Counted from the stretch's first letter, positions 1 to 17,614 are shown. The stretch: DNA of 53,831 nucleotides from Candidatus Curtissbacteria bacterium (GCA_016183325.1 JACPEV010000019.1:1-53831); one strand, 5' to 3'. Numbers and translations are program-made. Notes: generated by a model from the letters alone, not told the origin.

Positions 1-3000
1 AATTCCTCCACCTCCGAGGTGAAAGCTGCCTCCACCTCGGAGGTGTCCCTTGGCGGCGGCCATATCGCCGCTGTACAAGGATATCAGTGGCATGTTTTAA
101 ACAAGTCCCAGACCTGGGTGACCAGGGGAGTCAGGACAGAGTATGCAGGAAGCTATGTTATTGAGCGCTCTGGTTGCGAGATCTATGGAGGACTTAAGCA
201 GATTGCCGGATCTGTCTACGGGATTCGAGCCGATGTACTAAGGAAGTTTGGCTGGGGGACAAGTATCACCGAGGACTTCGAACTCACCCTGCGCCTCTAC
301 GAGGCGGGCTACAAGGTGGCCTTTACTCCCTATATCCAGACACCGGCCGAAGCAGTCTCCACCATCAAGCGCTTGATCAGACAGAGAATGCGCTGGGCAG
401 AAGGAGCTTCCTTTAATGTTAAAATAATGCTTCCACGAATCCTCTTCGGCCGTTGGGTAGAGGCGGAGCAATTGATGGTAGATGATGGAAGCTTGAAGGT
501 AGATAATCCAGCATCCACCTTCCAACATCAAAATCCACCCTCCAGTTTCCATCCTCTATCATCAAAAGTCTGGGTGCCTTCGAAGCTGACACTGGCCGAG
601 AAGCTGGAGTTTATATACTTAGCCCCTTATTACCTGCAGGCTGCTTTCTTTGTGGTTGGCACCATATGCTGGTTTTTATCAGAAGCGGTCTTTGGTGCGC
701 GCTTACCCTTCTGGACTGCTGCTTTCGGCTGGTCACTGGTGTTTACCAACTTGCTTGCTCTGCCTCTAATGAACATCATCGGACTGTTTCTGGAAGAATC
801 CGATGAGCGTGACTATGTAGGCATTTTATCCTTCGTGGCCCTTTCCTACATAGTAGTGCCCTTTCAGGCATATGCAGCTATTAAGGGCTTTTTGGAGAGA
901 GAGGAAGGGCCATGGTTCAGAACCCCAAAGACTGGATTGGTGACGGATGTTATAAAGCGCGGCAGATTCCACCGGCTGATTGCAGGAATACTGGGAAAAC
1001 CAGAGCCGGCGGCTGCTCAATTTCTAATTCCTAATTATTCTAATTACTCTAATCAAATCCCAAATCCCAATGACCAAGATAATTTAGGTCAATTAGGAAT
1101 TAGGTCAATTAGGTCAATTTCTCATCCTTATCTTTCCCTCGCTACTGCCCATAATCGCTTCCAAAATTTCCAGATTCGTCCCCGGCATATTCGCTGGGTT
1201 GGTAATTTGGCACTTGGGGTGATAATTTCTATAACTGTCCTTTTGTCCCTTTTTGCACCCTTGATGACGGCAACGACTTCTTATGCCGCGGATCCAATTC
1301 TGAGGACCGTTAGTGATTCTCAAAAAGAGGTCGATCGCGCCAAGATAGATCAAGGGACAGAGGATGGAGGCGAAAAAGGAGAAGAAATTACCACTCCACG
1401 GGCAATCTCCAAAACAACCAAAGGAGGCAAAAAGCTGGAGTTTATCTTCCACGAAGAGGCGCGAGTGCGAGTCAAGTTGGAACATCGAGAGATTGAGTTT
1501 GAGACTGAAAAAGTCTTTGGACAAAGAGTCAATCCCAAACGGTCAAGGATAAAAGCGGATAAAGAGGTAGTTTATGAGGAGATTATTCCAGGGATAGACC
1601 TTAAATACTCGATAACAAACGACTTGTTGGTCGAGGAAGTTATTTTGAAGACGCCTGATGCTGCTGCTCACCTCGGAGGTGTGCCGCAGGCGCAACACCA
1701 CCTCCGAGGTGGAAATGCATCGGAGGTGTCGATAATCCAAACCTTAAGAACTGTTGATGTCAAGGTGGTTTCGCCGGATCCGGGTGCATTCGGTTTCTTT
1801 GCCGATGACGGGAAAGAACTATTTCGCTTTGGCGCACCCTTTGCCAAGGATGCTGGCGGGGCAGTGAGCAACGATCTGAGCTTTACTTTGGACAAACCCT
1901 TCGACTTCGCTCAGGGCTATAGACTGACAAAAACCTTGGGAGAGTCAGCCAAAACCTGGTTAACAGATCCCCAAAGAGCCTATCCAGTCTCAATTGATCC
2001 CTCAGTAATTGTTAGCGGGGGGATTGTTGAGACAGAAACTCAATTTGGCGGATTGCAAAGGAAAATTGTCTATATGTCTGGGGCTAATGGCGGGGCCGCG
2101 TGGTATGCATTCTACAATGATGGAGCAGATGTATTTTATAAAAGGTGTCTAGAGTCATCTGCCTGTGATGAAGCTGCGGATTGGTCTGCTGCCCAGGATT
2201 TGGACACTGGTGACGCAGATAATTATAATCCGACAATTGCGGTTTCCGGCAATTTTATTGTTGTTTTTTGGATTGATCTCAGCGCAAACGCGTATGAGGG
2301 AAGAAGGTTTGATGTTTCAACCGCATTTGCCCATACTTTAGGAACGCTTTGTACTTCTGCTTCACTAGGAACGCTTTCTTCAACATTTATGGTAAGCGTT
2401 GCGCTTCTTGATAATGATACTGGATATGTAGCTTATTCTGATACTTCAAGTGATACTGAATTTGGTGTTGAATTATTTTTTACCCTAAGTGGAATCTGTA
2501 CTACAGCCTCTGCAAATTTTGCCGGACTAACAATTACTAATGATTCTAGGCTTACAGCGGGCGACAGGCCAGTATTGGTTCCTATAAATAGCACGGGTGT
2601 TGACATGATTTTTCAAGACGGAGACTTATCATATAGCAGGTTGCATGATGTAAATTGGTCCAGGCAGAACATCACAATTGCCTCAGTTACAGACAATATC
2701 TATTCAGTTACAACAGACGGTACAACTGTCTGGATTTTGACGGTTTCTGGAACGACAGCAACCAACATGTATAAATGTTGTACTGCGGATATTGTAGAAA
2801 CCCAGGTAGATAGCGATGCCGGAGCAACCGGTCATGATTCGATATCTGATATTGATATGTTTTGTGTGGCAGCAGATGATTGTAAAATTGTCTATACAGA
2901 TGATATTGATACTACACCAACGCTTATTTTTGTTGATTGCAATGATGAAGATTGCTCAACAAAAACAGTAACAACGCTAGATGCAGACATTGGCGACAGT

Positions 3001-4350
3001 CTTGATCAGGCCGGTGCATCTGTATTTTGCGTGACTGATGGGACGAGCGTTAGCGGAAATTGCAAGATTGCCTATGGAGATGATATGGATACAACACCGC
3101 TTTTAAAAGTGATTGATTGTACGAATGATACAGATTGTTCAACGAATACCTCAGGTACTGTTGACACCAATTTGGGAAACGCAGCATCTGTTCTTCATAC
3201 TTCAATTGATTGCCCGGCAGATGACGATTGCAAAATTACCTATAACGATACAGGGTTATCAGACTTTTTCTTTGTTGATTGTTCAACTATTGCTTGTTCA
3301 ACCGGGAATACGGTTACCCAAATTGATAGCGCTTCAGGTACTGCCCCAAGAAGTGACCTGGATTGCTCTGCCGGTGCTGACAACTGTAAATTTGTGTACA
3401 ATGACGCTAATGCGACCGGAGGGTGCGCAGACGCAGATTCTATTTGTTTTGTAGATTGTTCGGCTGCGGAATGTGGGACAGGCAGGACTTTAACAGTTGT
3501 TGATGTAGATGCTGGAGTAACAAATAATGCATCGCCAGTAAGCATTGATTGCGTTGGTGGAGACACTGACTGTAAACTTGTTTATGGCGATGGAACTGAT
3601 GAGGCCATGTACTTTGTTGATTGTGGAGACGCAACCTGTACTGTTGCTAACGCTACAATTCAATCAATTGATAACACAGTCGCAGGCGCAAACACTTCAC
3701 GTAGTTTTGGTGCTGCTATGGATTGCACTCCTGGTGTGGCTGATTGTAAAATTGTTTATCCTGATGATACGGGAAATTCTGTTATCTCTTTTGCCGACTG
3801 TGATGATGCTACCTGCTCTCCCATAGGCTCAACAGAGGTTATACCTGGAGCAAGATTTAATGGAACAATCCAATGCTTGACAACTGCTAATTGTAAGCTA
3901 GCCTACTATGATGGAACTGCCGAAACCGATCCAACAGTCCAATTTTTAGATTGTGACGTAGCAGATTGTCTTCCTTCCGCAACTTCTCTGACAGCTCCAT
4001 GGACAGGACAAACAAATGTTACTTCTGTGTCTTTGTCTCTTGATACAACGAATAACGCGCTTTATGCAAATATTTTAAAAGACACTTCAGAGCAAGCATA
4101 CTTTAAATCAACAGATAAGTCTACGATTTCATGGAGCGCTGAAACATCCTACGCCTTTACAGCCGGGGATCTAGGCCATATCTCGACGCCCGAGAAAGGA
4201 GCAGGTACCACTCAAATTGGAGCGGTGTTGAGACAAGGCGCCAATTTTGAGTTTGCCGTGGTACCAGAGAGGATATGGTTTTTAATGGGAGTATTACCCT
4301 TCTTACCGAGATTATTTAAGAAGATGAAAAGTAGGAGGCGTAATTTATGA
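1..4350 (+). CDS. 5'-truncated processive family-2 glycosyltransferase (cellulose/chitin/hyaluronan-synthase-like) continuing in one ORF into TM segments, a ~1000-aa Cys-rich repeat ectodomain and a VPE-TM-basic C-terminal tail
   Basis: Frame is open to the window edge (no stop in 1-18). ITEDFELTLRL (TED) and QRMRWAEG (QxxRW) motifs. Hydrophobic helices follow the GT core. Signal-anchor-like LALGVIISITVLLSLFAPLMTATTSYAAD. Seven tandem 4-Cys repeats. Tail AVVPERIWFLMGVLPFLPRLFKKMKSRRRNL*. Confidence 0.7.
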   Translation, partial: NSSTSEVKAASTSEVSLGGGHIAAVQGYQWHVLNKSQTWVTRGVRTEYAGSYVIERSGCEIYGGLKQIAGSVYGIRADVLRKFGWGTSITEDFELTLRLYEAGYKVAFTPYIQTPAEAVSTIKRLIRQRMRWAEGASFNVKIMLPRILFGRWVEAEQLMVDDGSLKVDNPASTFQHQNPPSSFHPLSSKVWVPSKLTLAEKLEFIYLAPYYLQAAFFVVGTICWFLSEAVFGARLPFWTAAFGWSLVFTNLLALPLMNIIGLFLEESDERDYVGILSFVALSYIVVPFQAYAAIKGFLEREEGPWFRTPKTGLVTDVIKRGRFHRLIAGILGKPEPAAAQFLIPNYSNYSNQIPNPNDQDNLGQLGIRSIRSISHPYLSLATAHNRFQNFQIRPRHIRWVGNLALGVIISITVLLSLFAPLMTATTSYAADPILRTVSDSQKEVDRAKIDQGTEDGGEKGEEITTPRAISKTTKGGKKLEFIFHEEARVRVKLEHREIEFETEKVFGQRVNPKRSRIKADKEVVYEEIIPGIDLKYSITNDLLVEEVILKTPDAAAHLGGVPQAQHHLRGGNASEVSIIQTLRTVDVKVVSPDPGAFGFFADDGKELFRFGAPFAKDAGGAVSNDLSFTLDKPFDFAQGYRLTKTLGESAKTWLTDPQRAYPVSIDPSVIVSGGIVETETQFGGLQRKIVYMSGANGGAAWYAFYNDGADVFYKRCLESSACDEAADWSAAQDLDTGDADNYNPTIAVSGNFIVVFWIDLSANAYEGRRFDVSTAFAHTLGTLCTSASLGTLSSTFMVSVALLDNDTGYVAYSDTSSDTEFGVELFFTLSGICTTASANFAGLTITNDSRLTAGDRPVLVPINSTGVDMIFQDGDLSYSRLHDVNWSRQNITIASVTDNIYSVTTDGTTVWILTVSGTTATNMYKCCTADIVETQVDSDAGATGHDSISDIDMFCVAADDCKIVYTDDIDTTPTLIFVDCNDEDCSTKTVTTLDADIGDSLDQAGASVFCVTDGTSVSGNCKIAYGDDMDTTPLLKVIDCTNDTDCSTNTSGTVDTNLGNAASVLHTSIDCPADDDCKITYNDTGLSDFFFVDCSTIACSTGNTVTQIDSASGTAPRSDLDCSAGADNCKFVYNDANATGGCADADSICFVDCSAAECGTGRTLTVVDVDAGVTNNASPVSIDCVGGDTDCKLVYGDGTDEAMYFVDCGDATCTVANATIQSIDNTVAGANTSRSFGAAMDCTPGVADCKIVYPDDTGNSVISFADCDDATCSPIGSTEVIPGARFNGTIQCLTTANCKLAYYDGTAETDPTVQFLDCDVADCLPSATSLTAPWTGQTNVTSVSLSLDTTNNALYANILKDTSEQAYFKSTDKSTISWSAETSYAFTAGDLGHISTPEKGAGTTQIGAVLRQGANFEFAVVPERIWFLMGVLPFLPRLFKKMKSRRRNL
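9..45. repeat. two 13-nt GC-rich palindromic units CACCTC(C/G)GAGGTG in frame in the CDS
   Basis: cacctccgaggtg at 9-21 and cacctcggaggtg at 33-45, both preceded by cctc. The same units recur at 1669-1728. Confidence 0.85.
477..563. repeat. AT-rich imperfect palindrome lying in frame inside the GT2 domain
   Basis: GATGATGGAAGCTTGAAGGTAGAT (481-504) matches the reverse complement of 533-563 (GATGATAGAGGATGGAAACTGGAGGGTGGAT). Word content resembles the 7585-7719 palindrome. It adds about 35 aa after the QxxRW motif. Confidence 0.5.
1669..1728. repeat. cluster of CACCTC(C/G)GAGGTG palindromic units in frame in the CDS
   Basis: cacctcggaggtg at 1669-1681, ccacctccgaggtgg at 1698-1712, half unit catcggaggtg at 1718-1728. 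Encodes HLGGVPQAQHHLRGGNASEVS. Confidence 0.85.
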
Positions 4351-4474
4351 AACAAAAACAAACATTCATGAGCTTGCTGAAAACCTCAAGTAATTTTCAC
4401 CACTGCTCTTCGGTTGGAACCAGGGAATGAAAATTTGCGAATTAACTTAGCAAGGCTTACTGGGTTGTAAAGAC

Positions 4475-6382
4475 TTATTGAGAGAAGAGCCGAGACTTGG
4501 GGATTATTTGCTTGGTCTGGGACTGAGAAGACCAGGATAATTGGGCTAATGCATTACCAGTATTTTCAAAGTACTCCATTTTTATGACATATTTCGTATT
4601 AGCATTAAGGGTAATTGTGCCCGACTTTTCGGTGGCAGATTGATAGTTCCAGTTATTAATAATTAACTGATCATTAACCCATAATCTTACTCCATCATCT
4701 GTTAGAGCGTAAAAAGTATATGTTTGAGAATATTGAGGTTGAACAAAACCCTGCCATCTGATTGAGAAAGTATTGGGGTTTACACTTGAATGAGGTCGAC
4801 CTTGACCCCAGTTAAAATTAATTGTCGGATCGACTCTCGTTGCTTTTAAACTTGTAAAGTTTGTTTTGTCATAGTATTTGCCTTTTAGCCCATCACCACT
4901 CAGAGGGGATGGAGAAGGACTTGGAGACGGTGAAGGAGATGGGGAGGGTGTCGGAGAAGGTGTTGGAGTTGGAGTAGTTGCCGGACTCGGACTGGGAGAT
5001 GGGTTCCCTCCAACTCCACCAATCGGAGTGCTGAGTGCTTGTTGCCAACGATCCCAGACAATTCCTTTTGTGTTACCATTGTAGTCTCTTATTCCTATTG
5101 TGCCAAAGGCTTTCCAAAGTATATCTCCCGTAATTGGGCTTGACGGATCTACCTGCCTAAACTGATTATTGGCTTCACACCATAGATCGCCATTGCAAGC
5201 AGAGTAGGAAGGAGGATTAGCAATTGGGTAGCAGGTTGTCATAGTAATTGCCGGCTGTAGATCACGATTTGACCACCAGTTAACAACATCGAAATTTTTC
5301 GTCTGAGCTGTATTTAAAACTAAATCCAGATAATCTCGTTCTTGCTCGAGAGAATATGTTTCTCCACTCCAGCAATTACTTGAATCCAAACGGTAAACTA
5401 AATTATCGGAAAGCCAACCAGTTTCGGCGATAACTGTTTGTTCACCGCCTCTGTCTCCAGCTCGAGTGAAGAAATCATCTGGAATATCGGATGGTATTGC
5501 ATGCCGAGAACCAATTCGATATCCATAAGGATAAGTAGAAACAGCAAATCGATCACGTTTAAGATTGACAAGTGCATCATAGGCAGCTTGATCGAAACCT
5601 GTTAACGAATCATTATAGAAAGATTCAAGGTGAATTGAGGGGAAAACTAGGGCATCGGGTTTAACGCTTTTGACGGCATCGTATGCCTCTCTTTCGACGT
5701 TGACTATGCTGTTCCATCTGCCGGGATAGGTGCTTTCGCAATTTTCCCAAAAAACATTAAACTCAATGGCTACATTAGCATATTTGGGTTGGAATTTGTT
5801 GGTTAACCATTTGACATAATTAATGTAAGCGATTCTTAATTTATATGCTTCTGTGCCAGGTGTTTGGGACTGAGAAAAATCGAAGCAGTCGTATGAGCTT
5901 GGCCATTCTTGAATTACCAGTTGTCCTGCCGAATCGATGGCTTTAGATGCTAACTCCTTTCGGCTGAGGGCAACTTGCAAAAAGACTGGTTTGCCTGTTG
6001 CGGCTGCATCCGCTGCAAAGGTATTCATTGTTGTAGTCCATGGGTGGGATTGAGGTGGGTCAGCAGCTTGGGCAAACTCGTCCCAAGGAATTCCATAGTG
6101 TTCAATAAATATTGAGATGACGTCTACATCATCTGCCAATTGGGACATTGTGTAACCGGACCGCAGATATGTGAAATATGGATCTTGCCCTACTTGAGCC
6201 TGCATGCCTGTTGAGGAGAGGTAGTAGGGTCTTACGGGTTGGCCATAAGATGAAGTTTTTGGAAATAGTTTTGAAAAAAAGCCACCCTGAAAAGGTAGTA
6301 CATATGAGGCTAATAAAAATAAAAGGAGGCCCAAAACTGGGATAAGAATAAAGAAATGTACGACTCCTTTTAGATTACCCAC
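4475..6382 (-). CDS. N-terminally membrane-anchored secreted protein: TIM-barrel glycoside-hydrolase-like domain, Pro/Ser/Thr linker, C-terminal PA14 domain
   Basis: N-terminal hydrophobic helix FFILIPVLGLLLFLLASYVL. The ...AIEFNVFWEN... and VIAETGW motifs are reminiscent of clan GH-A acid/base and nucleophile (weak). PSPSPSPATTPTPTPSPTPSPSPSPSPSPSPSP linker. The C-terminal GLKGKYYD...FSIRWQGF...YTFYALTDDGVRLWVNDQLII...MEYFENTGNA pattern is typical of PA14. Confidence 0.75.
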   Translation of the reverse strand: MGNLKGVVHFFILIPVLGLLLFLLASYVLPFQGGFFSKLFPKTSSYGQPVRPYYLSSTGMQAQVGQDPYFTYLRSGYTMSQLADDVDVISIFIEHYGIPWDEFAQAADPPQSHPWTTTMNTFAADAAATGKPVFLQVALSRKELASKAIDSAGQLVIQEWPSSYDCFDFSQSQTPGTEAYKLRIAYINYVKWLTNKFQPKYANVAIEFNVFWENCESTYPGRWNSIVNVEREAYDAVKSVKPDALVFPSIHLESFYNDSLTGFDQAAYDALVNLKRDRFAVSTYPYGYRIGSRHAIPSDIPDDFFTRAGDRGGEQTVIAETGWLSDNLVYRLDSSNCWSGETYSLEQERDYLDLVLNTAQTKNFDVVNWWSNRDLQPAITMTTCYPIANPPSYSACNGDLWCEANNQFRQVDPSSPITGDILWKAFGTIGIRDYNGNTKGIVWDRWQQALSTPIGGVGGNPSPSPSPATTPTPTPSPTPSPSPSPSPSPSPSPLSGDGLKGKYYDKTNFTSLKATRVDPTINFNWGQGRPHSSVNPNTFSIRWQGFVQPQYSQTYTFYALTDDGVRLWVNDQLIINNWNYQSATEKSGTITLNANTKYVIKMEYFENTGNALAQLSWSSQSQTKQIIPKSRLFSQ

Positions 6383-6551
6383 AGCTTAATCATGTATTTT
6401 TTTCGTGCCGATTGTCAAATTCGATAACGTACTGGATGAATGCAGAATCTCTTGAAGAAAGATTGAAAATTGCGAGAGACGTGAGGAGAGAAGCTGATGA
6501 GGAACACAGGCAGGTTAGCGCAGAAGATTATTCAGATTTGGTTAAAATGCT

Positions 6552-6767
6552 TTGTTTATGGTAGGAATTGTCTACGCGAGAGGTTCAATTTCTCACAAAA
6601 GAAAATTATTTAAATACTTAAATATCTGCTCAACTAATAGAGCACTTTTGGAAGCAATCAAAGTGTTATACGGGGGGAGTGTGATAGAGCATAACGATTC
6701 ACTAAGATTGACAATTGGCAAAAAGTCCGCAACAAGATTATTTTTGAATGCTTCACTACCTGCTTAA
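6552..6767 (+). pseudogene. possible degenerate LAGLIDADG homing-endonuclease fragment
   Basis: FMVGIVYARGSIS...NRALLEAIKVLYGGSVIEHNDSLRLTIGKKSATRLFLNASLP loosely follows the LAGLIDADG half-domain pattern (xxGxxDGDGSI ... LLexIkxxlGG.i ... l.i ... l.p). The acidic residues are lost, and upstream frames are full of stops. Confidence 0.25.
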
Positions 6768-6806
6768 TTATTAGAAAATAGGGGTTAAAACTTATAGGAT
6801 TGATTG

Positions 6807-6992
6807 TTAGCAGATTCTTTCGGCTAATTTTACAGCTAAATACCAAAAAATTATAACATAGACAATGTTCCCTAGCAATGCGAAAATATCATGAGTAGCA
6901 AATATGACTATTATCCATGCTGCTACAAGATTTGTGCAGATTGAAGAAAAGAATTTCACCTGAGCTCTTGTAGGCTCAAAATAAATACTCAA
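6807..6992 (-). CDS. small two-TM membrane protein, unknown function
   Basis: 61-aa hydrophobic ORF divergent from the exosortase gene. Weak similarity (YF.P...Q...(F/I)S.IC.NL) to the ORF at 11317-11523. Confidence 0.4.
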   Translation of the reverse strand: MSIYFEPTRAQVKFFSSICTNLVAAWIIVIFATHDIFALLGNIVYVIIFWYLAVKLAERIC

Positions 6993-7601
6993 ATGAATTC
7001 ACCAATGCGCCAATTTGTCGATAAAGTCCCCTCTGTTTCTAAAGATACCTTCGTTACCCTCTTTTTAATTCTCGTTCTTCTGTTGATGTTTTTTCCCTTC
7101 ATGGCCACGTTTAATGATCTTTTGACGAGAATTGTCATTAACTTCAAGGGCTATTGGTTTATTCGAGAGGTGATTGTGCCTTTTGAGGTAAGGGTGGTTG
7201 CTGTGGTTTTGGCGGCGATGGGTTTTGATGTTGGAGTCACGAAGGAGTATGTGGTTTTGGGAACTTCTGCGCCGTTTATTGCAGAGATTGTTTGGAACTG
7301 CATTGGTTGGCAGTCGATACTGTTTTTTGCTATTACAGCTTTTGTCGGCTTGCAGGGAGATAAATACACGAATTTTTCGAAAGCAAAGGCACTGGTGATC
7401 GGAGCGCTGGGGACATTTTTAATTAATATTTTGCGGATTGTCGTGGTTGTGATCTCTGCCTATTACTTTGGACAGCTACCGGCGACAATTATCCACGATT
7501 ATGGATCGATTTTGGCATTTATTGCTTGGCTCTTTTTCTTTTGGTGGTTTAGTTATGCTTTTGTGCTGGAACAGGCAGAGACTGTAGATGGTAGAAAGTA
7601 G
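6993..7601 (+). CDS. exosortase/archaeosortase-family transpeptidase-like membrane protein
   Basis: Polytopic 202-aa protein. Family-typical Cys/Arg/His constellation: VWNCIGWQS (C-x-G), NILRIVVVV (N-x-x-R), IIHDYGS (H). Trp/Phe-rich last helix WLFFFWWF. Confidence 0.65.
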   Translation: MNSPMRQFVDKVPSVSKDTFVTLFLILVLLLMFFPFMATFNDLLTRIVINFKGYWFIREVIVPFEVRVVAVVLAAMGFDVGVTKEYVVLGTSAPFIAEIVWNCIGWQSILFFAITAFVGLQGDKYTNFSKAKALVIGALGTFLINILRIVVVVISAYYFGQLPATIIHDYGSILAFIAWLFFFWWFSYAFVLEQAETVDGRK

Positions 7602-7667
7602 AAGATAGGAGAATGAGAATAGAGAATGGAAGTTAGATAGAAATAAGTGGAAAACGTTTTGATAATT
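7526..7667. repeat. 142-bp direct repeat, copy 1 (last 24 codons + stop of the exosortase gene plus 66 bp downstream)
   Basis: Read base by base as identical to 10928-11069. Confidence 0.9.
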
Positions 7668-7719
7668 CTATCTTCTAGCTTCCATTTTCAAAAATCAATC
7701 TTCTATTGTCTAGCATCTA
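7585..7719. repeat. AT-rich imperfect palindrome (~135 bp) overlapping the last codons and stop of the exosortase gene
   Basis: Left arm TAGATGGTAGAAAGTAGAAGATAGGAGAATGAGAATAGAGAATGGAAGTTAGATAGAA. Reverse complement of right arm TAGATGCTAGACAATAGAAGATTGATTTTTGAAAATGGAAGCTAGAAGATAGAA. Confidence 0.7.
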
Positions 7720-7729
7720 TTGTCGTTCC

Positions 7730-7792
7730 TCGTACAGTTTCGTGCTGGAAGAGAGAAAGCCTGTAGTTGAAAAGGAAGTTATTAAGGTCTGA
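7730..7792 (+). pseudogene. displaced remnant of an exosortase gene 3' end
   Basis: Translates SYSFVLEERKPVVEKEVIKV*. Compare the live end SYAFVLEQAETVDGRK*. Confidence 0.55.
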
Positions 7793-7821
7793 GTCTCGCC
7801 CCGTAGACACGATACCGCGAC

Positions 7822-9201
7822 TTAAAGAAGACAAGCTGGAACTGAATATATTTTCGTCTTTTTCTTGGAGATCACCCCTGCCTCTTGCCAGTTGACAATC
7901 AGGCTTAAAGAGGGGTCGTAGGCGTCAAGAAAACTCAAGAGAGAGCGGCTGATTTTAGGGGTTTTCTTGACATCGACGGGGATGATTTTTTCTTTTAGTA
8001 CAAAATCAACTTCCGCTTTTGCAGTAGTCCGCCAAAAGGCAAGGGGTTCATGCTTTAAAACCAGAAAAGTATAGTTTTCTAAAAGTTGGCCAAGTTCAAT
8101 GTCGTCGAAGTCAAACTTATGCAAAAGAGCGTTTCTTAATCCTAAATCAAAAAAGTAATATTTAGGGTTCTTTTTTAACTCTGTAACCAGATTTCTATGA
8201 AAAGGGTTGATTTTGCCTACCACATAGGTTTGTTCAAGAATAGAGAGAATACTTTTTAGCTCTTTGAAATAAACTGATGCAAATTGTCCTAAGTCGTTAA
8301 AGTTAACAACCGACCCTGAAGTTTCCGCCAGGTATTTAAGAACCAGCAAGACTTTCTCTTTGTCTTTAATGCCATATAGCCTTGATATGTCCTTTTCAAT
8401 ATATGTAGTAAAGATATTATTAAGAAGAACCTTCTTTTTTCCCTCTTCATTTTCTTTTACCACTGCTGGGTAGCCCCCAAAAGTCAGGTATTGTTTTAGG
8501 AAGTTAGAAAGCTCGATTTTGAAAAGTGAATCGGCAAGACCCGGCTTTTGAAAAGAAAATTTGCGGGCTTGATATTCTTGGTACAATCTTTTGTCTTTCG
8601 AACGCATCACCTCGGCAAATGATAGCGGATAAAGCTCAAAAAAGAGGGCTCTACCAACCAGATATGCTCCAAGTTGGGCAAGATCAAGAGTGGATGAACC
8701 TGAAATGACAAACTTGACTTGGGGATAGGTGTCATAAAGAAGTTTTAGGACCTGACCGCCATTTTTTATGTATTGGGCTTCGTCGATGAAGAAAAATAGT
8801 TTATCCGCCTTCGCAGAAAACCACGATCGTGAGATCGTGGATGAATGCGAAGCATTTTCCGCTTCGGCGGGATTTCGCTCCCGACGAAGCGAGCGGAGAA
8901 GATACCCCGTGCGTAAGCTCGGGGGAGCTTCATCTTTGTCCCGCAGGTAAAATTCAAGATATTGTTTGGGATTTTTCTCGATCTTTTGCTTTTCTAGTTC
9001 GTCTTCTAGATTCACGAATTCGAAGTGTGCCGTTGGTGATTTTTTCTGCAAAGACATTGCTATCTTGGCCAATAGGGTTGTTTTGCCGCTTTGTCTTGGA
9101 CCGCGAACAACTATAATTTCTCGGTTATCAAGAAAATCGAAAATCGTTTTTTCTAGATCTCTTTCAATGTAATCTTTAGGAATAAAGCTATTTAAATTCA
9201 T
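7822..9201 (-). CDS. AAA+ ATPase of the AAA_14/DUF4143 (COG1373) type carrying an extra ~40-aa GC-rich insert
   Basis: Walker A GPRQSGKTT and Walker B FFFIDEAQ. C-terminal ...ENYTFLVLKH...FWRTTAKAEVDFVL is typical of DUF4143. The insert between the Walker motifs is encoded by 8806-8932. Confidence 0.8.
   Translation of the reverse strand: MNLNSFIPKDYIERDLEKTIFDFLDNREIIVVRGPRQSGKTTLLAKIAMSLQKKSPTAHFEFVNLEDELEKQKIEKNPKQYLEFYLRDKDEAPPSLRTGYLLRSLRRERNPAEAENASHSSTISRSWFSAKADKLFFFIDEAQYIKNGGQVLKLLYDTYPQVKFVISGSSTLDLAQLGAYLVGRALFFELYPLSFAEVMRSKDKRLYQEYQARKFSFQKPGLADSLFKIELSNFLKQYLTFGGYPAVVKENEEGKKKVLLNNIFTTYIEKDISRLYGIKDKEKVLLVLKYLAETSGSVVNFNDLGQFASVYFKELKSILSILEQTYVVGKINPFHRNLVTELKKNPKYYFFDLGLRNALLHKFDFDDIELGQLLENYTFLVLKHEPLAFWRTTAKAEVDFVLKEKIIPVDVKKTPKISRSLLSFLDAYDPSLSLIVNWQEAGVISKKKTKIYSVPACLL
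8806..8932. repeat. GC-rich hairpin-rich segment inserted in frame in the ATPase gene
   Basis: Hairpins ccacgatcgtgagatcgtgg (8821-8840), cgcttcggcg (8860-8869, UUCG loop) and gctcgggggagc (8917-8928). Much higher GC than the flanking CDS. Confidence 0.6.
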
Positions 9202-9247
9202 ATCTTTTCAATATTAATAGCATTGAAATTGAAAGTCAAGAAGAGCA

Positions 9248-9433
9248 ATATATTTTTCAGGTGTCTCAACTTGGCACGTCTCAACAATTGTCGCTCGGAT
9301 AGGTCACGACTATTTTGCGGCATTTCTAACCCTTATTTGGCTCTTTTTCTTCTGGTGGTTCTCGTATAGTTTCGTGTTGGAGGAGAAAAGGGTAGACTTA
9401 GGAACTAAGGATTCAGCTCGACCTGTCGGTTGA
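9248..9433 (+). pseudogene. ~60-codon remnant of a diverged exosortase gene 3' end
   Basis: Translates ...YFSGVSTWHVSTIVARIGHDYFAAFLTLIWLFFFWWFSYSFVLEEKRVDLGTKDSARPVG*. It aligns to the live gene from YYFGQLPATIIHDYGSILAFIAWLFFFWWFSYAFVLEQ. Nucleotide differences are mostly synonymous. Confidence 0.7.
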
Positions 9434-9617
9434 GTTTTGGTCCCCGCACAGACCTTACTTGCTCCCCGGGTTACCATACGGTACCCGGCGTCGCAAGGGC
9501 GGTTATGCGGGGCAAGCCCCAAAGTATACTTACCTCCTCCCGAGGTCTACGGGAAACCACGTGGGGTATCCCACTGTGGCGTCCTCGCGTCGGAGGAGCG
9601 TAACTTCGGGGCAAGGG
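9434..9617. other. GC-rich, highly base-paired ~185-nt segment (candidate structured RNA or non-autonomous element)
   Basis: Nested complementary pairs: 9442-9448/9506-9512 (CCCCGCA/TGCGGGG), hairpin 9466-9488, 9533-9540/9592-9598 (CCTCCTCC/GGAGGAG), 9541-9545/9583-9587, hairpin 9557-9579. Flanked by TTCTCGTATAGTTTCGTG (9359-9376) and TTTTCGTATAGTTTTGTG (9618-9635). Confidence 0.4.
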
Positions 9618-9709
9618 TTTTCGTATAGTTTTGTGGGGTTGACAAACAACCCATGCTTACTTAGACTGATAGTAAGATAATTTCTTACTAATAGTTTACA
9701 ATTGTGCCT

Positions 9710-10237
9710 ATGAAGCGAAGCTTGATTCTTACTCTTTATCAGTCAAAGAGAACTGTTTTTACTCTCAATGAAATAGCCTTAATAACCGGTGAACTTAATA
9801 GGAATAACCTAAAGGCAAGGCTTCACTATTATGTAAGACGCGGCTTGTTGAGAAATGTAAGAAAAGGGATATACGTCAAGGAGGAGTACGAGCCTTTTGA
9901 ACTCGCTACCAAGATATATACTCCTTCTTATATCTCTCTTGAGTCTGTTCTTGAAAAAGAGGGGGTCATCTTCCAACATTATTCGACAATTTTCGTGGTG
10001 AGCTACTTGACGCGGAAAGTGTTGGTCGACGGCTTGGAAATCCAATATAGGAAAATCAAAGAAAGGTTACTTCTTGACTCTCAAGGAATCATCAACTTGG
10101 TGAGTTACTCAATTGCATCGCCTGAGAGGGCCTATTTAGATGCCCTGTATCTTTACCATAATTATCATTTTGACAATCTTGAGGCTTTAGATAAGAAAAA
10201 GATTGAAGAACTAAAGACCCTATACAAAAATGATTGA
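9710..10237 (+). CDS. abiEi: AbiEi-family antitoxin/transcriptional regulator
   Basis: N-terminal wHTH-like VFTLNEIALITGELNRNNLKARLHYYVRRGLLRNVRKGIY. 8-nt overlap with the downstream AbiEii gene. An alternative GTG start lies at 9704. Confidence 0.7.
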   Translation: MKRSLILTLYQSKRTVFTLNEIALITGELNRNNLKARLHYYVRRGLLRNVRKGIYVKEEYEPFELATKIYTPSYISLESVLEKEGVIFQHYSTIFVVSYLTRKVLVDGLEIQYRKIKERLLLDSQGIINLVSYSIASPERAYLDALYLYHNYHFDNLEALDKKKIEELKTLYKND

Positions 10238-10922
10238 CGTTGACAAACATAAGTTTATCCTAATCCAAATCTTAAAAGACATTTATACAGATAAGGACTT
10301 AGGACCAATTCTTGGGTTCAAAGGAGGTTCGGCAGTTTACCTTTTTTATAATCTTCCAAGATTCTCCGTCGATTTAGATTTTAGTCTTTTGAATGAACGC
10401 AAAAAGAAAGTGGTTTTTGAGAAAGTTAAAGAGATTCTTGTCAGGCACGGAAGATTGAAAGAAGTTAGAGAAAAGAGGTTCACACTTTTTTACCTTCTTT
10501 CTTATGACGAAAAATTAGCAAATATAAAAGTTGAAATTTCCAAAAGAAAATTTCCTGACCAGTATGAGGTTTTGAACTATCTCGGAATCCCAATGCTGGT
10601 TATGAAGAGGGAGGATATGGTCGCCCACAAATTGGTGACTCTTCTTGAGCGAAAAGAAATTGCCAATCGAGACCTTTTTGATCTTTGGTACTTTTTGAGT
10701 CATAAATTTCCCATAAACCGCGAGTTAGTTGAGTTTAGAACCAGGGAAAAATTCGATGAGTACTTTAATAAGTGCATAAAGGTGATTGAGAGGGTAGATG
10801 CGAGGTACATTCTACAAGGATTAGGAGAAATTCTGGATGATAGACAAAAAGCCTGGGTTAGACAAAATCTTAAAAAGGAGCTTCTATTTTTAATGAAATT
10901 TTACCTGACTCAGTCGGCCTAA
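10230..10922 (+). CDS. abiEii: AbiEii/AbiGii-family nucleotidyltransferase toxin (DUF1814)
   Basis: LGFKGGSAVYLFYNLPRFSVDLDFS matches the GG(T/S)AL...RFSxDLDF signature. Size and partner gene fit the family. Confidence 0.8.
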   Translation: MIDVDKHKFILIQILKDIYTDKDLGPILGFKGGSAVYLFYNLPRFSVDLDFSLLNERKKKVVFEKVKEILVRHGRLKEVREKRFTLFYLLSYDEKLANIKVEISKRKFPDQYEVLNYLGIPMLVMKREDMVAHKLVTLLERKEIANRDLFDLWYFLSHKFPINRELVEFRTREKFDEYFNKCIKVIERVDARYILQGLGEILDDRQKAWVRQNLKKELLFLMKFYLTQSA

Positions 10923-10927
10923 CCGGT

Positions 10928-11069
10928 TTGGCTCTTTTTCTTTTGGTGGTTTAGTTATGCTTTTGTGCTGGAACAGGCAGAGACTGTAGATGGTAGAAAG
11001 TAGAAGATAGGAGAATGAGAATAGAGAATGGAAGTTAGATAGAAATAAGTGGAAAACGTTTTGATAATT
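10928..11069. repeat. 142-bp direct repeat, copy 2
   Basis: Identical to 7526-7667. Begins 6 bp after the AbiEii stop. Confidence 0.9.
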
Positions 11070-11071
11070 TG

Positions 11072-11101
11072 GGCAGTTTTGTGTTGGAAGAGAGATTGTA
11101 A
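11072..11101 (+). pseudogene. short displaced remnant of exosortase gene end
   Basis: Translates GSFVLEERL*. Directly abuts repeat copy 2. Confidence 0.45.
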
Positions 11102-11206
11102 TGTTGATAATGCGAATTAATACGAGTTAGAACGACGTGTAGCATTTTTTGATTCCGATGGCACATTGGTCGTTCTCGCGAATTTATGCGAATAGTAACA
11201 AGTTCC

Positions 11207-11320
11207 TTACTTTTTCTTTCTGAGAAGGGTGGGGAGAGCGACTAAGACTAATGCTAATAAGAGAATTGCTCCTGTGAGATAGAACTGAACTAGTACGATA
11301 TCGGTTTGGTTAAAATTCAT
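11207..11320 (-). CDS. possible 37-aa single-TM peptide translationally coupled to the upstream small ORF
   Basis: My own translation: MNFNQTDIVLVQFYLTGAILLLALVLVALPTLLRKKK*. ATGA start/stop overlap with 11317-11523. Below the ORF-track size cutoff. Confidence 0.3.
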   Translation of the reverse strand: MNFNQTDIVLVQFYLTGAILLLALVLVALPTLLRKKK

Positions 11321-11523
11321 GTTTTAATTCCTTTTAGAATTAATATAGAGCTAGACCAAGATGCAATAGTTGCAATCAAGCCTAATATTACAATCTTTAG
11401 GCTGGGTCTGTCAACGCCAAGGAAATAGGGCACAACTAGGGAAGCAAAGAATAATAAACCTAAGTTGCCGCAAATTTCGGAAATGCGATTTAGCTGATTG
11501 GGATTAAGTCTAGGAAAATACAT
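11317..11523 (-). CDS. small two-TM membrane protein, unknown function
   Basis: 68-aa hydrophobic ORF. Weak similarity to 6807-6992. Confidence 0.45.
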   Translation of the reverse strand: MYFPRLNPNQLNRISEICGNLGLLFFASLVVPYFLGVDRPSLKIVILGLIATIASWSSSILILKGIKT

Positions 11524-11534
11524 TTTTTAAGTAT

Positions 11535-11640
11535 ACAGGACTTATGCAGTGTTTCCAAAATTAGCTTCAGATTCTGGACAAGTCCTAGACCCGGACCTTA
11601 GGGCCAGAATGACAGTCAGGCACAAAGTGCGTATGTCCTG
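11535..11640. mobile_element. MITE-like palindromic element (family with ...CCAGAATGACA core)
   Basis: Ends CAGGACTTATGC / GCGTATGTCCTG are inverted. The 54-bp core at 11561-11614 recurs at 20037-20090 with 1 mismatch. Confidence 0.5.
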
Positions 11641-11722
11641 AGATTGTCAAAAAGATTTAATTATTGCATTGTTATATTGCTTCATTGTTAAATTGTTAAA
11701 TTGCTTTATTATTCAATAAGAA

Positions 11723-13597
11723 ATGATATATCCGGCTCAGACTTCTCTTATTCCAGTAACAGTTGCTTTGGCAAAGTGGGTTGAGGCGCATGGATTTGGT
11801 GGACTTTATCCCTATTGGTATTTAGGGACGACGCCGGTGAAATATCTAATTGGGCCGGTTGTGCCTTCGATTTTGGTGGGGCTTCATAAGATTTTGCCGC
11901 AATCATCTTATTTTGATTTGTCCATTTACTATTTACTATTTTCTATTTTCTTTTCTTCTGTCGGTTGGGGAGTGCTGGTCTGGAAATTGTCAGGGAGTAG
12001 GGTGATGGGGGTGATAGGGGCAGTAGGGGTATTTTTGATGCCGTGGCATTGGGTGAGCGCCTTAGCGTTATCAGAATTGTCGGCGGTTGCGGCGGGAGCG
12101 CTGACGCCGTGGGTGTTATGGATGTTTGCCAGGTATCAAGAGGCTCGGGGTCCTGCCCGCGACAGTTCGTCAGAAGGTAAAGGTAAGGAAGCCCGTATCG
12201 ATATGGATGTAGGTGTGAGTGTCGCAGCCCGTATGGGTGTTGGTCAACGTCAAACGTTAAACGAAAACGAAACTGGCAGCGACAACCCAAAACGACAACC
12301 AAACCCAAACAGGCATCCTAACCTTAACCTAACTACTATTGTTCCAGTTGCTTTCGCTTTTGCTTTGTTGCTTTTAACAAATGCTGTTGCTTCGATTCCT
12401 GCTGTAGTGGGAATGGGGATACTTTCAATTTTCAATTTTCAATTTTCAATTTTCAATTTAAGAGTAGAAGACAGGTTAAAAAGATTGGGATTGGTGATTT
12501 TAGGCGGCGGGTTAATCGCCACTCTTTGGTATGGGCCAGGTTATTGGTGGACAATCGCAACTTCACCCTCAATAGGTGGCAGGCCGGCGGTGAGTGCTTT
12601 TGTTAACTTAATAAACCTTATGAGAGGGTTTGTACCAGTTATTTTGGCCGTAGTTTTGGTATTTTGGGGATTGCGGCCTAAAGGAGTTTATCAAAAGTTT
12701 ACCTATATGTGGCTTTCAATTTTCGGACTATTGACTCTTTTTAGGTTTATGGCCGATTTCGATTTTTGGACGGACTGGACGGCGTGGGTAGGGGAAGTGG
12801 AGGTAGGCTTGGCGCTTTTAGCAAGCACAAGAATTTCAAATGTCAAATTTCAAATAACTCGGGGTCCTGTCGGCAGCTCGTCCCACTCGACGTCCTCGGT
12901 CAATTCTAGCTCGAAACATGATCGTAACCATACCTTTGACCTGCGGGCGCTCAGCGGGACCCCCTCCGCTGCCGCCACCCCTCGCGGAGTTTATCCTGAG
13001 CTCGTCGAAGGGTCATATTTCTTACGGTGGCTACCTTCGCTCCTTGACACGAAGAAAACTATTTACCTTTTACTCTTTACAATTTACCTTCTCGTCGGCT
13101 GGTTTTTAGCTTATCAGCATCGGGATTTTTGGCTGCCACGGACAGATATTGAGAATACTGTGGAATATAGGATTGCAAAATGGCTGGAGGGTAATGCAAC
13201 GGGTCCTGTCAGTCGAGACAGTGGGGGAAATTGGGGAAGTATGGGGAGTTTGGGGAAACGGTCTCTTGTTTTCCTTTCCGGAACGACGGCTTTTTGGTTG
13301 AATAGCTTTGTGGATATTGCCCAAGTGCGCGGCGGAGTCGATCAGGCGTCGGTTGATCCTTCGACAGGCTCAGGATGGCGACAGGCAGCCTGGGAGATTA
13401 GGGAAGGTGTGATCACAGAAGGCACAGAAAGAACTCTGAAGGCACTGAGAATTAATTATATTGTCGTCCACACGCAGGCTTCAAGCGAGTTTTATCATGA
13501 TTTTGTCTATAGCGCAATTTTTGAGAAAGCGCCGTATTTGCAGAAAGTATATGATGATGCGGGAGACAGGATATATAAAGTAACAATTGACAATTGA
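11723..13597 (+). CDS. polytopic membrane protein related to the YfhO-like GT-C paralogs, riddled with in-frame repeat insertions
   Basis: Shares YWYLGTTPVKYLIGP (W-x-x-G-x-P) and ...FWLNSFVDIAQVRGGVD... with the 24440, 28813 and 32715 proteins. Contains three GC-rich inserts and a heptad array without losing frame. Confidence 0.6.
   Translation: MIYPAQTSLIPVTVALAKWVEAHGFGGLYPYWYLGTTPVKYLIGPVVPSILVGLHKILPQSSYFDLSIYYLLFSIFFSSVGWGVLVWKLSGSRVMGVIGAVGVFLMPWHWVSALALSELSAVAAGALTPWVLWMFARYQEARGPARDSSSEGKGKEARIDMDVGVSVAARMGVGQRQTLNENETGSDNPKRQPNPNRHPNLNLTTIVPVAFAFALLLLTNAVASIPAVVGMGILSIFNFQFSIFNLRVEDRLKRLGLVILGGGLIATLWYGPGYWWTIATSPSIGGRPAVSAFVNLINLMRGFVPVILAVVLVFWGLRPKGVYQKFTYMWLSIFGLLTLFRFMADFDFWTDWTAWVGEVEVGLALLASTRISNVKFQITRGPVGSSSHSTSSVNSSSKHDRNHTFDLRALSGTPSAAATPRGVYPELVEGSYFLRWLPSLLDTKKTIYLLLFTIYLLVGWFLAYQHRDFWLPRTDIENTVEYRIAKWLEGNATGPVSRDSGGNWGSMGSLGKRSLVFLSGTTAFWLNSFVDIAQVRGGVDQASVDPSTGSGWRQAAWEIREGVITEGTERTLKALRINYIVVHTQASSEFYHDFVYSAIFEKAPYLQKVYDDAGDRIYKVTIDN
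12423..12457. repeat. 5 x TTTCAAT tandem heptamer inside the CDS
   Basis: tttcaat repeated five times exactly. Encodes SIFNFQFSIFN. Confidence 0.95.
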
Positions 13598-16331: not shown

Positions 16332-17614
16332 TTGATGAGGGTCCTTTTTGTTATTAGGGCAGTCGAGCATTATCCCTATTTTAGATCAATAGTTGAAGCG
16401 TTACTTGATCGTGATCATGATGTAAAAATTCTTTTTGATCGAGATTGGAGTCAAAGAGGGCTAGATTTGGTTGGGATAAAGCTGAAGGGGGTTTCTTACG
16501 GTTGGACAGTGCCATATTTAGTCCGGTTAAGAAGGATTATTTTTTGGATACGGGATCTTTTAAGTTATATTCGCTATCTAAAAGTCAGGGGACAATCCGG
16601 TTTTTATAAAGATCGTTGGCGCAAAGTGTTATTTGTGCCTGTCCAGTGGTTTTTGAAAATTCCTTTTGTGGAATTCCTTTTAAAAACTAAGGTAACTGGG
16701 CGAGTGTTGGCGGTTTTGGAAACAGTGACAGGACCTGTTTCTGAAATAGTTGAAGACATCAGGCAGTTTGATCCCGCCGTAGTTGTGGCAACGCCTGCTA
16801 ATATGCCTCATTCGTCTGCCGATCTTGAGTACTTAAAGGCAGCTAGGGCACTTTCGATACCGACAGCTTTGCCCGTTTTTTCTTGGGATAATTTAACTAC
16901 AAAGGGATTAATTCATATAAAACCAAAAGTTTTGCTTGCTTGGAACGAAAAACAAGTTCAGGAGGCATGGAAACATCATGGAATAGCAAAAAGAGACATA
17001 AGGATTTGAAATGGGGGATAGACGCCAAATGGCCGATACTTTGCTATCTAGAAACATCTGATAGTTTGACCGGAGATGAGAGAGGGTTAGTTTTAGAGTT
17101 GAGCCATAAGTTGAAAAAGTCACGAGATTCGAAACTTAAAAATACACAGATTATTGTGCGTCCTCACCCTTTTAAGTCGCATTTTGGTAATTTTAATGAA
17201 TTAGATGTCTTTGTAATTCCCAAAAGAGGAACGTGGCCGAAAGACGAAGACTCGATCCAGCTTTATTTTGATACTCTCTATTTCTCTTTTGCTGTTTTTG
17301 GAATAAATACAAGCGGACTAATTGATGCGGTCTGCTGTGACAAGCCAATTGTGACTTTAAATCTTGAGCAATATGGTAAGACTCAGAGCCAGACGGAACA
17401 CTTTAAGCAACTTATTAAAAATGACGTTTTGGAAATTAGCAGTAGAGAGGAGTTCTCAAGGATACTTGCGGAACTGTTAAGAGGCAAAGACAGAAGGAGG
17501 AAGCAACGCGCGAATTTTATCAAAAAATTTATCAGGCCAAAGGGCTTGGAAGTTGCAAGCGGAGAGACAGCCGCCTTGGAGATTGAAAAATTGGCTTACC
17601 AGAACATACAATAG
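16332..17614 (+). pseudogene. GT-B-fold-like enzyme split into two overlapping ORFs (16332-17009 and 16940-17614) by a 1-nt frame change
   Basis: ORF1 looks like an N-terminal Rossmann half (MRVLFVIRAVEHYPYF...). ORF2 looks like a C-terminal half (IVRPHP...GINTSGLIDAVCCDKPIVTL). Frames differ by -1, and A5 runs lie at 16948-16952 and 16988-16992 within the overlap. Confidence 0.5.

Follow-up and report, generated by a model that had tools for sequence, protein, structure and literature searches.

A candidate exosortase-type sorting pair with a glycosyltransferase-fused target in a Candidatus Curtissbacteria glycosylation locus

Here, we describe a stretch of DNA of 53,831 nucleotides (nt; hereafter the window), which is one entire contig of a Candidatus Curtissbacteria bacterium (GCA_016183325.1, JACPEV010000019.1:1-53831) from a groundwater metagenome. 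We focus on two genes on its forward strand, namely a large gene at 1-4350 whose product carries a C-terminal tail resembling a sorting signal (the target) and a gene at 6993-7601 that encodes a small exosortase/archaeosortase-family membrane protein. An earlier inspection of the DNA alone (the sequence-only reading) had proposed that these two form a sorting pair and that they lie beside polysaccharide or glycosylation genes. The surroundings bear out the second part, as the locus is a glycosylation locus that encodes a Wzx-type flippase, PMT_2, a carbamoyltransferase, and many glycosyltransferases. The nearest relatives of the exosortase gene are found in Candidatus Curtissbacteria (Microgenomates, Patescibacteria). 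In four independent groundwater metagenome runs, a single assembled contig runs from inside the target gene (base 321, 615, or 1893) as far as base 7555, shortly before the exosortase gene ends, so the arrangement is no assembly chimera. Scanning 4200-7900 for promoters and terminators yielded nothing informative.

The target gene is open in frame 1 without interruption from base 1 to its stop codon at 4348-4350 and is thus truncated at its 5' end by the contig border. It encodes 1449 amino acids (aa) in the window, and alignment to a complete relative (L003) places the missing N-terminal part at about 510-530 aa. The domain order is a GT2 glycosyltransferase, membrane helices, a signal-anchor helix, an ectodomain of ~990 aa, and the sorting tail. 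Residues 1-340 (1-1020) are the C-terminal half of a PgaC/CelA-like GT2 enzyme (PF13632 at 1.7e-15, a QRMRW motif, and weak matches to TIGR03937, TIGR03030, and NF053846; Pfam GT2 matches at aa 19-240), including three hydrophobic helices at aa 204-290. The giant protein is therefore more than a surface protein. Behind the three synthase helices follow a cytoplasmic linker and a strong signal-anchor helix (aa 403-421, hydropathy 2.46), and then TSYA and ADP (aa 426-432) with a putative cut between them (1207-1290 in all). The pattern RW-G-N, helix, small-x-A is kept in about 8 of 13 aligned target homologs, and this conserved small-x-A site suggests that signal peptidase may split the ectodomain from the GT2 module.

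The ectodomain (1288-4242) was delimited by hydropathy and by alignments to relatives and has only a weak match to DUF7948. Its distal part (about nt 2863-3990, aa 955-1330) contains at least six Cys-rich repeats of ~50-60 aa each, with the pattern DCx4-6C[KN][IFL][VAT]Y ... FVDCx4C, which no Pfam family matches. At the very start of the window (nt 1-60), there is a short in-frame low-complexity insert (..TSEV.. repeats), like those in the GT-C protein discussed below.

The target ends in ..GANFEFAVVPERIWFLMGVLPFLPRLFKKMKSRRRNL, which can be divided into three parts (4261-4341), just as the sequence-only reading had described. The V-P-E signature (4261-4269, aa 1421-1423; VPER with the next residue), the proposed recognition and cleavage site, is followed by a short Pro-containing hydrophobic stretch, IWFLMGVLPFLPRLF (4273-4317; family pattern ..L.[LF]....P[FL][LI]P), and by KKMKSRRRNL (4318-4347, with the basic cluster at 4318-4341) directly before the stop codon. 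The signature is preceded by a conserved, clade-specific segment, ..GDLGHISxPxxGxGTxQIGVVLRQGxNFEFAx (4162-4260), that was recognized in two alignments of target relatives (A2 and A3). Among 64 motif-aligned tails, P is found in 62 and E in 61 (D in the other three), and V, I, or L precedes the P in 61. The first residue is therefore not strictly V as first described, but the P-E core is near-invariant. The residue after it is N, K, R, or Y, giving the consensus [VIL]-P-E-[NKRY], and a Leu-rich stretch with Pro at +11 and +14 and a K/R cluster at +18 to +25 follow; the median distance from P to the protein end is 31.5 residues. A tail hidden Markov model (HMM) built without the window tail recovers it at 46.1 bits (E 6.6e-13), and one built only from tails beside distant exosortase clades still does so at 25.0 bits (E 2.5e-6). 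With both leave-out models, the target tail is the sole match among the 237 open reading frames (ORFs) of the window.

The ORF at 6993-7601 encodes 202 aa, and the database gene call begins at its second Met (Met5, nt 7005), which is the probable start and yields 198 aa. Its product matches the exosortase/archaeosortase model TIGR04178 over aa 98-186 at 38.8 bits (E 8.6e-10), well above the curated cut-off of 23, which confirms the family that had been assigned to it. The best named subfamily model is that of archaeosortase C (ArtC, TIGR03762; 36.7 bits vs a cut-off of 100), in which aa 28-185 align to model positions 120-270. It is followed by CrtC (22.8 vs 225), XrtG (TIGR03110; 16.0 vs 102.75), and XrtM (11.1 vs 125), and no match to the ArtA model was listed in the NCBIfam scan. 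For a fused relative (P0214, discussed below), the XrtX (27.4 vs 170) and ArtF (26.7 vs 150) models likewise score below their cut-offs. The protein thus belongs to the exosortase superfamily and to none of its named subfamilies. The Cys/Arg/His pattern noticed at the outset is present as Cys103 in NCIGWQS (nt 7299-7301), Arg148 in NILRIVV (nt 7434-7436), and His168 in IHDYG (nt 7494-7496), in the numbering of the 202-aa ORF, and all three residues are unchanged across 17 homologs (53-77% identity). Six hydrophobic segments in its hydropathy profile mark it as a polytopic membrane protein. AlphaFold2 predicts an all-helical bundle containing a single small beta-hairpin region (predicted local distance difference test, pLDDT, 76.8). 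Searching PDB sequences with a profile of the exosortase produced 0 matches, and Foldseek with the model returned nothing at E<1, so no solved relative is available. The family appears to be small, as only 465 relatives at E<=1e-3 were retrieved when 1.84 billion representative proteins were searched with a profile.

To follow the two partners beyond the window, relatives were collected in a scan with one genome per species, which gave 212 exosortase relatives and, from these, 80 loci (Curtiss-, Levy-, Woese-, Davies-, Gottesman-, and Chisholmbacteria, other Patescibacteria, some Anaerolineae, and Bathyarchaeia). Tails were found first by a simple filter and then by an HMM built from the tails themselves. 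The sequence-only reading had staked its proposal on other proteins sharing the tripartite tail. Apart from the window, a tail-bearing ORF lies upstream on the same strand in 56 of the 80 loci (56 of the 75 with enough upstream sequence), and it is mostly directly adjacent to the exosortase homolog. The tail HMM matches 57 of 81 sequences, and among 4377 ORFs, all matches at E<1e-3 but one sit upstream of an exosortase homolog on the same strand. In the window's own exosortase clade, the tail is present in 28 of 30 testable loci. Its form there is [FY]EF[AS]x[VL]PE[KN], and other clades carry TPxIIVPEA..WYSRKKK, SSLQIPENLL..LPK, or, in Anaerolineae, TPVVTVPE; tail subtypes hence track exosortase clades.

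The association also holds in the other direction. A metagenome scan from a tail alignment alone (the 6-sequence A3, as the 15-sequence A2 was too diverse for a pattern scan) found 16 loci, and an exosortase homolog (E<=1e-94) lies directly downstream in 14 of the 15 that could be tested. Several of these loci are tandem target-enzyme-target-enzyme arrays. When homologs were sought with just the C-terminal 106 aa of the target, four matches came back under the word-index limit of the tool, a number that is no measure of how widely the tail is spread. The 53.8-kb contig holds one tail and one enzyme, and across the related loci (about 1 Mb), tails almost always adjoin an enzyme of their own. 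The system is thus dedicated, with roughly one target per enzyme, rather than a many-substrate system; adjoining enzyme and target genes are known as a hallmark of such "dedicated" sorting systems (PMC3237569). Another group of possible targets, proteins of ~700-800 aa beside some exosortases that end in a helix and K/R residues, was rejected since they have no P-E and no tail-HMM match and are YfhO or GT-C-type enzymes.

The closest connection between the two partners is seen where they are one gene. Two proteins (P0196 of 946 aa and P0214 of 1227 aa) combine GT2, an ectodomain, ..PIEVPEN, a helix, a basic cluster, and the exosortase domain in one polypeptide, and two others (P0167 and P0187) run from an exosortase domain through an ectodomain to ..GIIVPE, a helix, and a KRKK tail. 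All four were found in the search of representative proteins and pass TIGR04178, and contig DNA confirms P0196 (L097, 3331-6171) and P0167 (L098, 5332-6708). Because target and enzyme are fused in both orders, a direct functional link between them is strongly supported. Their tails resemble those of two Bathyarchaeia loci (L069 and L072), and the fusions are therefore probably archaeal. Together, the reciprocal searches, the clade co-variation, and the fusions bear out the pairing of tail and exosortase that had been proposed from the window. A different arrangement was seen in Anaerolineae, where single ORFs (L048, 1-3990; L041, 643-4683; L037, 3-6134) contain two or three internal tail copies (..TPxxTVPE, helix, RRRR). 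In the first of these, each internal tail is followed by a new signal-anchor helix, an Ala-x-Ala site, and further ectodomain. Judging from this layout, such ORFs would be polyproteins that are cut into several surface proteins.

Next to the enzyme, the tail keeps close company with glycosyltransferases. GT2 is located in the same ORF in 36 tail-bearing targets, in the adjacent upstream ORF in 2, and absent in 5 (thus present in 38 of 43 testable targets, with 17 more cut by contig ends and left outside the count), so that the tail is in essence the ending of a single family of GT2-fused proteins. In the window's clade, targets are homologous over their whole length at 40-55% identity (the upstream genes of L003, L005, L011, L016, and L020). 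Between clades, the GT2 part alone aligns (42-60% identity) and the ectodomains are unrelated, yet the tail is retained; the conserved core consequently consists of GT2, tail, and exosortase, and the displayed domain is variable. In complete targets (L003, 2239-9180; L011, 3326-9199; L014, 5056-9984; L056, 3725-9994), two helix-turn-helix domains precede GT2 and thus place a DNA-binding module on a membrane glycosyltransferase. These resemble the ones of IS481, IS3, and IS630 transposases and come without a transposase catalytic domain; in the window target, this region would fall beyond the contig end.

A second glycosyltransferase is usually found on the other side. In 23 loci, a homolog of the window ORF at 11723-13597 (+) begins 550-2500 nt past the exosortase start on the same strand, making it the gene that relatives usually have immediately behind the exosortase gene. 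The ORF has no Pfam or NCBIfam match of its own, and PF10131 (PTPS_related) is recorded for some of its homologs. With its AlphaFold2 model (pLDDT 77.7), Foldseek ranks STT3 and AglB first and then AftD, ArnT, and PglB (E 2e-6, probability 1.0). On the basis of this predicted fold, the product appears to be a GT-C membrane glycosyltransferase, oligosaccharyltransferase-like and a distant relative of the PTPS_related proteins. Two segments of it (aa 153-186 and 387-428) are low-complexity inserts, which coincide mostly with gaps in the homolog consensus and have a pLDDT <50; one of them contains ..PRGVYPELVEGS...

Taken together, we consider it probable that target and exosortase form a dedicated enzyme-substrate pair of the exosortase/archaeosortase type, in which the enzyme would cut at or near P-E and hand the new C-terminus to an acceptor. 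In the topology that we envisage, GT2 would be located inside the cell and the ectodomain outside, with the short C-terminal helix leading to a basic tail that is inside again. The polytopic enzyme of 198-202 aa would recognize the tripartite signal within the membrane, and a Cys/Arg/His-based cut at or beside P-E would remove the C-terminal helix, so that the segment IWFLMGVLPFLPR would be absent from the mature target. The best precedent is the archaeosortase ArtA, which cleaves a signal of PGF, helix, and basic residues, after which a lipid is attached, and whose conserved Cys and Arg are essential (PMC9263693). By analogy with ArtA, the new C-terminus may be passed to a membrane lipid or to a glycan made by the same cassette. 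The GT-C enzyme probably glycosylates the ectodomain or builds the acceptor.

Several points weigh against this reading. First and foremost, proteolytic processing of the tail is something we infer. The enzyme is far shorter than classical exosortases and scores below every subfamily cut-off, and Pfam PF09721 reaches 22.2 bits on it, just under the gathering score of 25.7 (a precomputed PF09721 match is on record for the called gene and most homologs). The HMM comparison that had been suggested for this ORF thus supports its family through TIGR04178, but neither through PF09721 nor through any subfamily model. For the tail, an NCBIfam scan of 43- and 68-aa versions at a requested E <= 10 returned no family, with tool filters that drop most matches above about 0.1; by model, then, it is not a PEP-, PEF-, PGF-, VPEID-, or Firmicu-CTERM signal. 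Furthermore, about a quarter of the related loci (clades 19, 20, and 22) have no tail-bearing neighbor, so that some members of the exosortase family may work differently. The window contig ends inside the target gene, and the counts behind the one-to-one layout cover this contig and about 1 Mb of loci, leaving room for further unlinked substrates.

A more far-reaching form of the proposal treats the whole cassette as a self-contained machine for protein-glycan or glycolipid conjugates, in which the exosortase would attach the C-terminus of the ectodomain, newly created at P-E, to a polymer or lipid-linked glycan that the target's own GT2 produces, with help from the GT-C enzyme. Gene fusion would then bring enzyme, acceptor, and substrate together in cis. 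We regard this as rather unlikely; if true, it would give the first acceptor logic of an exosortase and would bear on how a surface coat is built in wall-poor bacteria of the Candidate Phyla Radiation (CPR).

Conversely, the pair could be real and the enzyme could do no more than cleave, with the ectodomain shed or released (into a surface layer, S-layer, or the medium) and nothing transferred to lipid or glycan. The sequence data fit hydrolysis and transpeptidation alike, and as the conserved signal-peptidase-like site would already free the N-terminus of the ectodomain, removal of the tail would release it fully; the Anaerolineae ORFs with their internal tails also resemble a design to be cut into pieces. 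The characterized ArtA, however, couples cleavage to lipid attachment (PMC9263693), and the conserved fusion and linkage with GT2 and GT-C point to a role for a glycan or lipid-linked partner, which makes release by cleavage alone unlikely.

It is also conceivable that the tail is a plain stop-transfer anchor and the exosortase homolog a non-proteolytic or differently targeted subunit of a polysaccharide synthase, their linkage reflecting a shared pathway. A tail confined essentially to one protein family could well be integral to the fold of that family, and some related exosortase clades do without a tail-bearing neighbor. A mere anchor would, however, hardly account for a nearly unvarying P-E that precedes the helix at a constant distance despite unrelated ectodomains, for a tail subtype that co-varies with the enzyme clade, or for invariant catalytic Cys, Arg, and His residues. 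Internal tails that are each followed by a new signal anchor, and tandem duplication, likewise fit a processing signal better, and we find the anchor explanation quite unlikely. Finally, a chance combination of a hydrophobic and basic C-terminus with a weak HMM match has a vanishingly small probability: C-terminal helices with basic ends are common in the membrane proteins of these loci (e.g., the YfhO-like ones), but tail and exosortase are associated in both search directions, in a clade-specific manner, and permanently in fused genes, which rules it out.

The dedicated pair that we favor can be placed among the known sorting systems. With PEP-CTERM/exosortase (XrtA, EpsH) of gram-negative bacteria, it shares a tripartite C-terminal signal with a Pro-Glu core, helix, and basic cluster, a polytopic enzyme with the TIGR04178 signature and conserved Cys and Arg, and a setting in polysaccharide or glycosylation loci. 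It differs in its [VIL]-P-E-[NK] motif, which lacks the second Pro, and in giving no TIGR02595-type match in the tail scan. PEP-CTERM targets are scattered and number in the tens, whereas here the relation is gene-adjacent and roughly one-to-one; XrtA-type enzymes have about 290 aa and eight helices, compared to about 200 aa in the window family. Moreover, the target is GT2-fused and the hosts are Patescibacteria, Anaerolineae, and Bathyarchaeia.

More similar in layout is the XrtG system of Firmicutes, which consists of a Firmicu-CTERM protein, XrtG, and two glycosyltransferases (PMC12854382). The arrangement is analogous in having a dedicated single adjacent target, a short exosortase (the XrtG model has 187 positions), and an associated GT2. 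On the other hand, the model of the XrtG-associated GT2 (TIGR03111) scores 16-34 against a cut-off of 364, the Firmicu-CTERM model misses the tail, and GT2 and target are one polypeptide here. The XrtG cassette also includes a PTPS-related membrane protein, and PF10131 proteins are encoded in the window as well. Archaeosortase C/PEF-CTERM of methanogens has a comparable signal, with a P-E core and then a hydrophobic residue, but the window enzyme is without the N-terminal ~120 residues of ArtC. PEF-CTERM systems have multiple targets, which are not known to be GT2 fusions. Lastly, ArtA/PGF-CTERM of Haloferax volcanii also relies on a tripartite signal, although with a PGF motif, a larger enzyme, and many substrates including the S-layer glycoprotein. 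ArtA processes signals that are not C-terminal as well (PMC9263693), which parallels the internal tails in Anaerolineae.

The remaining features of the locus mostly concern the spacing of the cassette. In the window, the target and exosortase genes are 2.6 kb apart because a PA14 gene, outside the system, has been inserted between them (4475-6382, -; PF07691 at 3.2e-28). It encodes a secreted protein of 635 aa with a Pro/Ser/Thr-rich linker and the PA14 domain at the C-terminus, and its N-terminal 450 aa have no family match. This gene is absent from the gap in the relatives examined, where the gap is mostly 0-1 kb. Several relatives (L009, 3574-4422; L011, 9174-9971; L020, 9101-9967) have a protein of ~265-288 aa in this place instead, which starts with a helix and has a conserved domain at its C-terminus (..FNGxDxKN..I.AG.G....D.YND..), and others have four-helix-bundle proteins like those of 23S intervening sequences, an IS200-like transposase, or a beta-lactamase-like protein. 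The gap between target and exosortase thus appears to be an insertion hotspot.

Between the exosortase gene and that of its GT-C partner lies a 3.3-kb insertion (7730-11068). This contains a DUF4143/AAA_14 ATPase gene (7822-9201, -) with an apparent in-frame low-complexity insert (..EAPPSLRTGYLLRSLRRERNPAEAENAS..) and the gene of an AbiEii nucleotidyltransferase toxin (10230-10922, +), whose overlapping upstream partner (9704-10237, +) has no HMM match and probably encodes the AbiEi antitoxin. All four runs contain a population variant that lacks 7730-11068 and joins 7729 to 11069. A perfect 142-nt direct repeat (7526-7667 and 10928-11069), comprising the last 76 nt of the exosortase gene and 66 nt downstream, and three degenerate remnants of the exosortase 3' end (about 7727-7790, 9302-9400, and 11075-11100; ..SYSFVLEERKPVV.., ..HDYFAAFLTLIWLFFFWWFSYSFVLEEK.., and ..VLEERL followed by a stop) flank the inserted ATPase and AbiE genes. 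The exosortase 3' end thus seems to have served as an insertion site more than once, although no recombinase is visible. In each of the four runs, the region immediately before the GT-C gene (11201-11700) reaches 3-5 times the assembled word depth of its flanks and contains the ends of many contigs, which continue differently from one another; this suggests a repeated or strain-variable segment.

Further downstream, there are three paralogous membrane proteins of 877-957 aa (24440-27313, +; 28813-31647, +; 32715-35348, -), one of which matches PF10131 (PTPS_related). All three end in a helix and an acidic tail (..WWAREEE, ..WWEKEEE, and ..LLDEE), and acidic ends (..EEDDY, ..EEEEE) are also found on large membrane proteins beside exosortase homologs in five of the related loci (L004, L021, L028, L040, and L049). 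These ends may represent a second C-terminal signal of opposite charge. Two overlapping ORFs in different frames (16332-17009 and 16940-17614, +) resemble one gene split by a frameshift.

Public records label the genes of this family "exosortase/archaeosortase family protein" or "hypothetical protein," and a search of the full-text literature on exosortase, archaeosortase, or PEP-CTERM in CPR, Patescibacteria, or Microgenomates turned up no relevant work. What is new here is the signal, together with a one-to-one layout, a target fused to GT2, a GT-C partner, and naturally occurring target-enzyme fusions. To our knowledge, few exosortase subfamilies have known substrates or a known transfer acceptor. 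Here, the system is minimal, with one enzyme and one target that are often adjacent or fused, almost always tied to GT2, and usually accompanied by a GT-C enzyme. With an enzyme of roughly 200 aa and a tail of 35 aa, it offers a small, clonable test case for exosortase chemistry, and the new signal together with the enzyme family definition can be used for genome annotation. It links protein sorting directly to glycan synthesis and points to a way in which Microgenomates/Patescibacteria and some Anaerolineae and Bathyarchaeia may display giant, fast-evolving surface proteins, which likely mediate attachment to hosts or surfaces.

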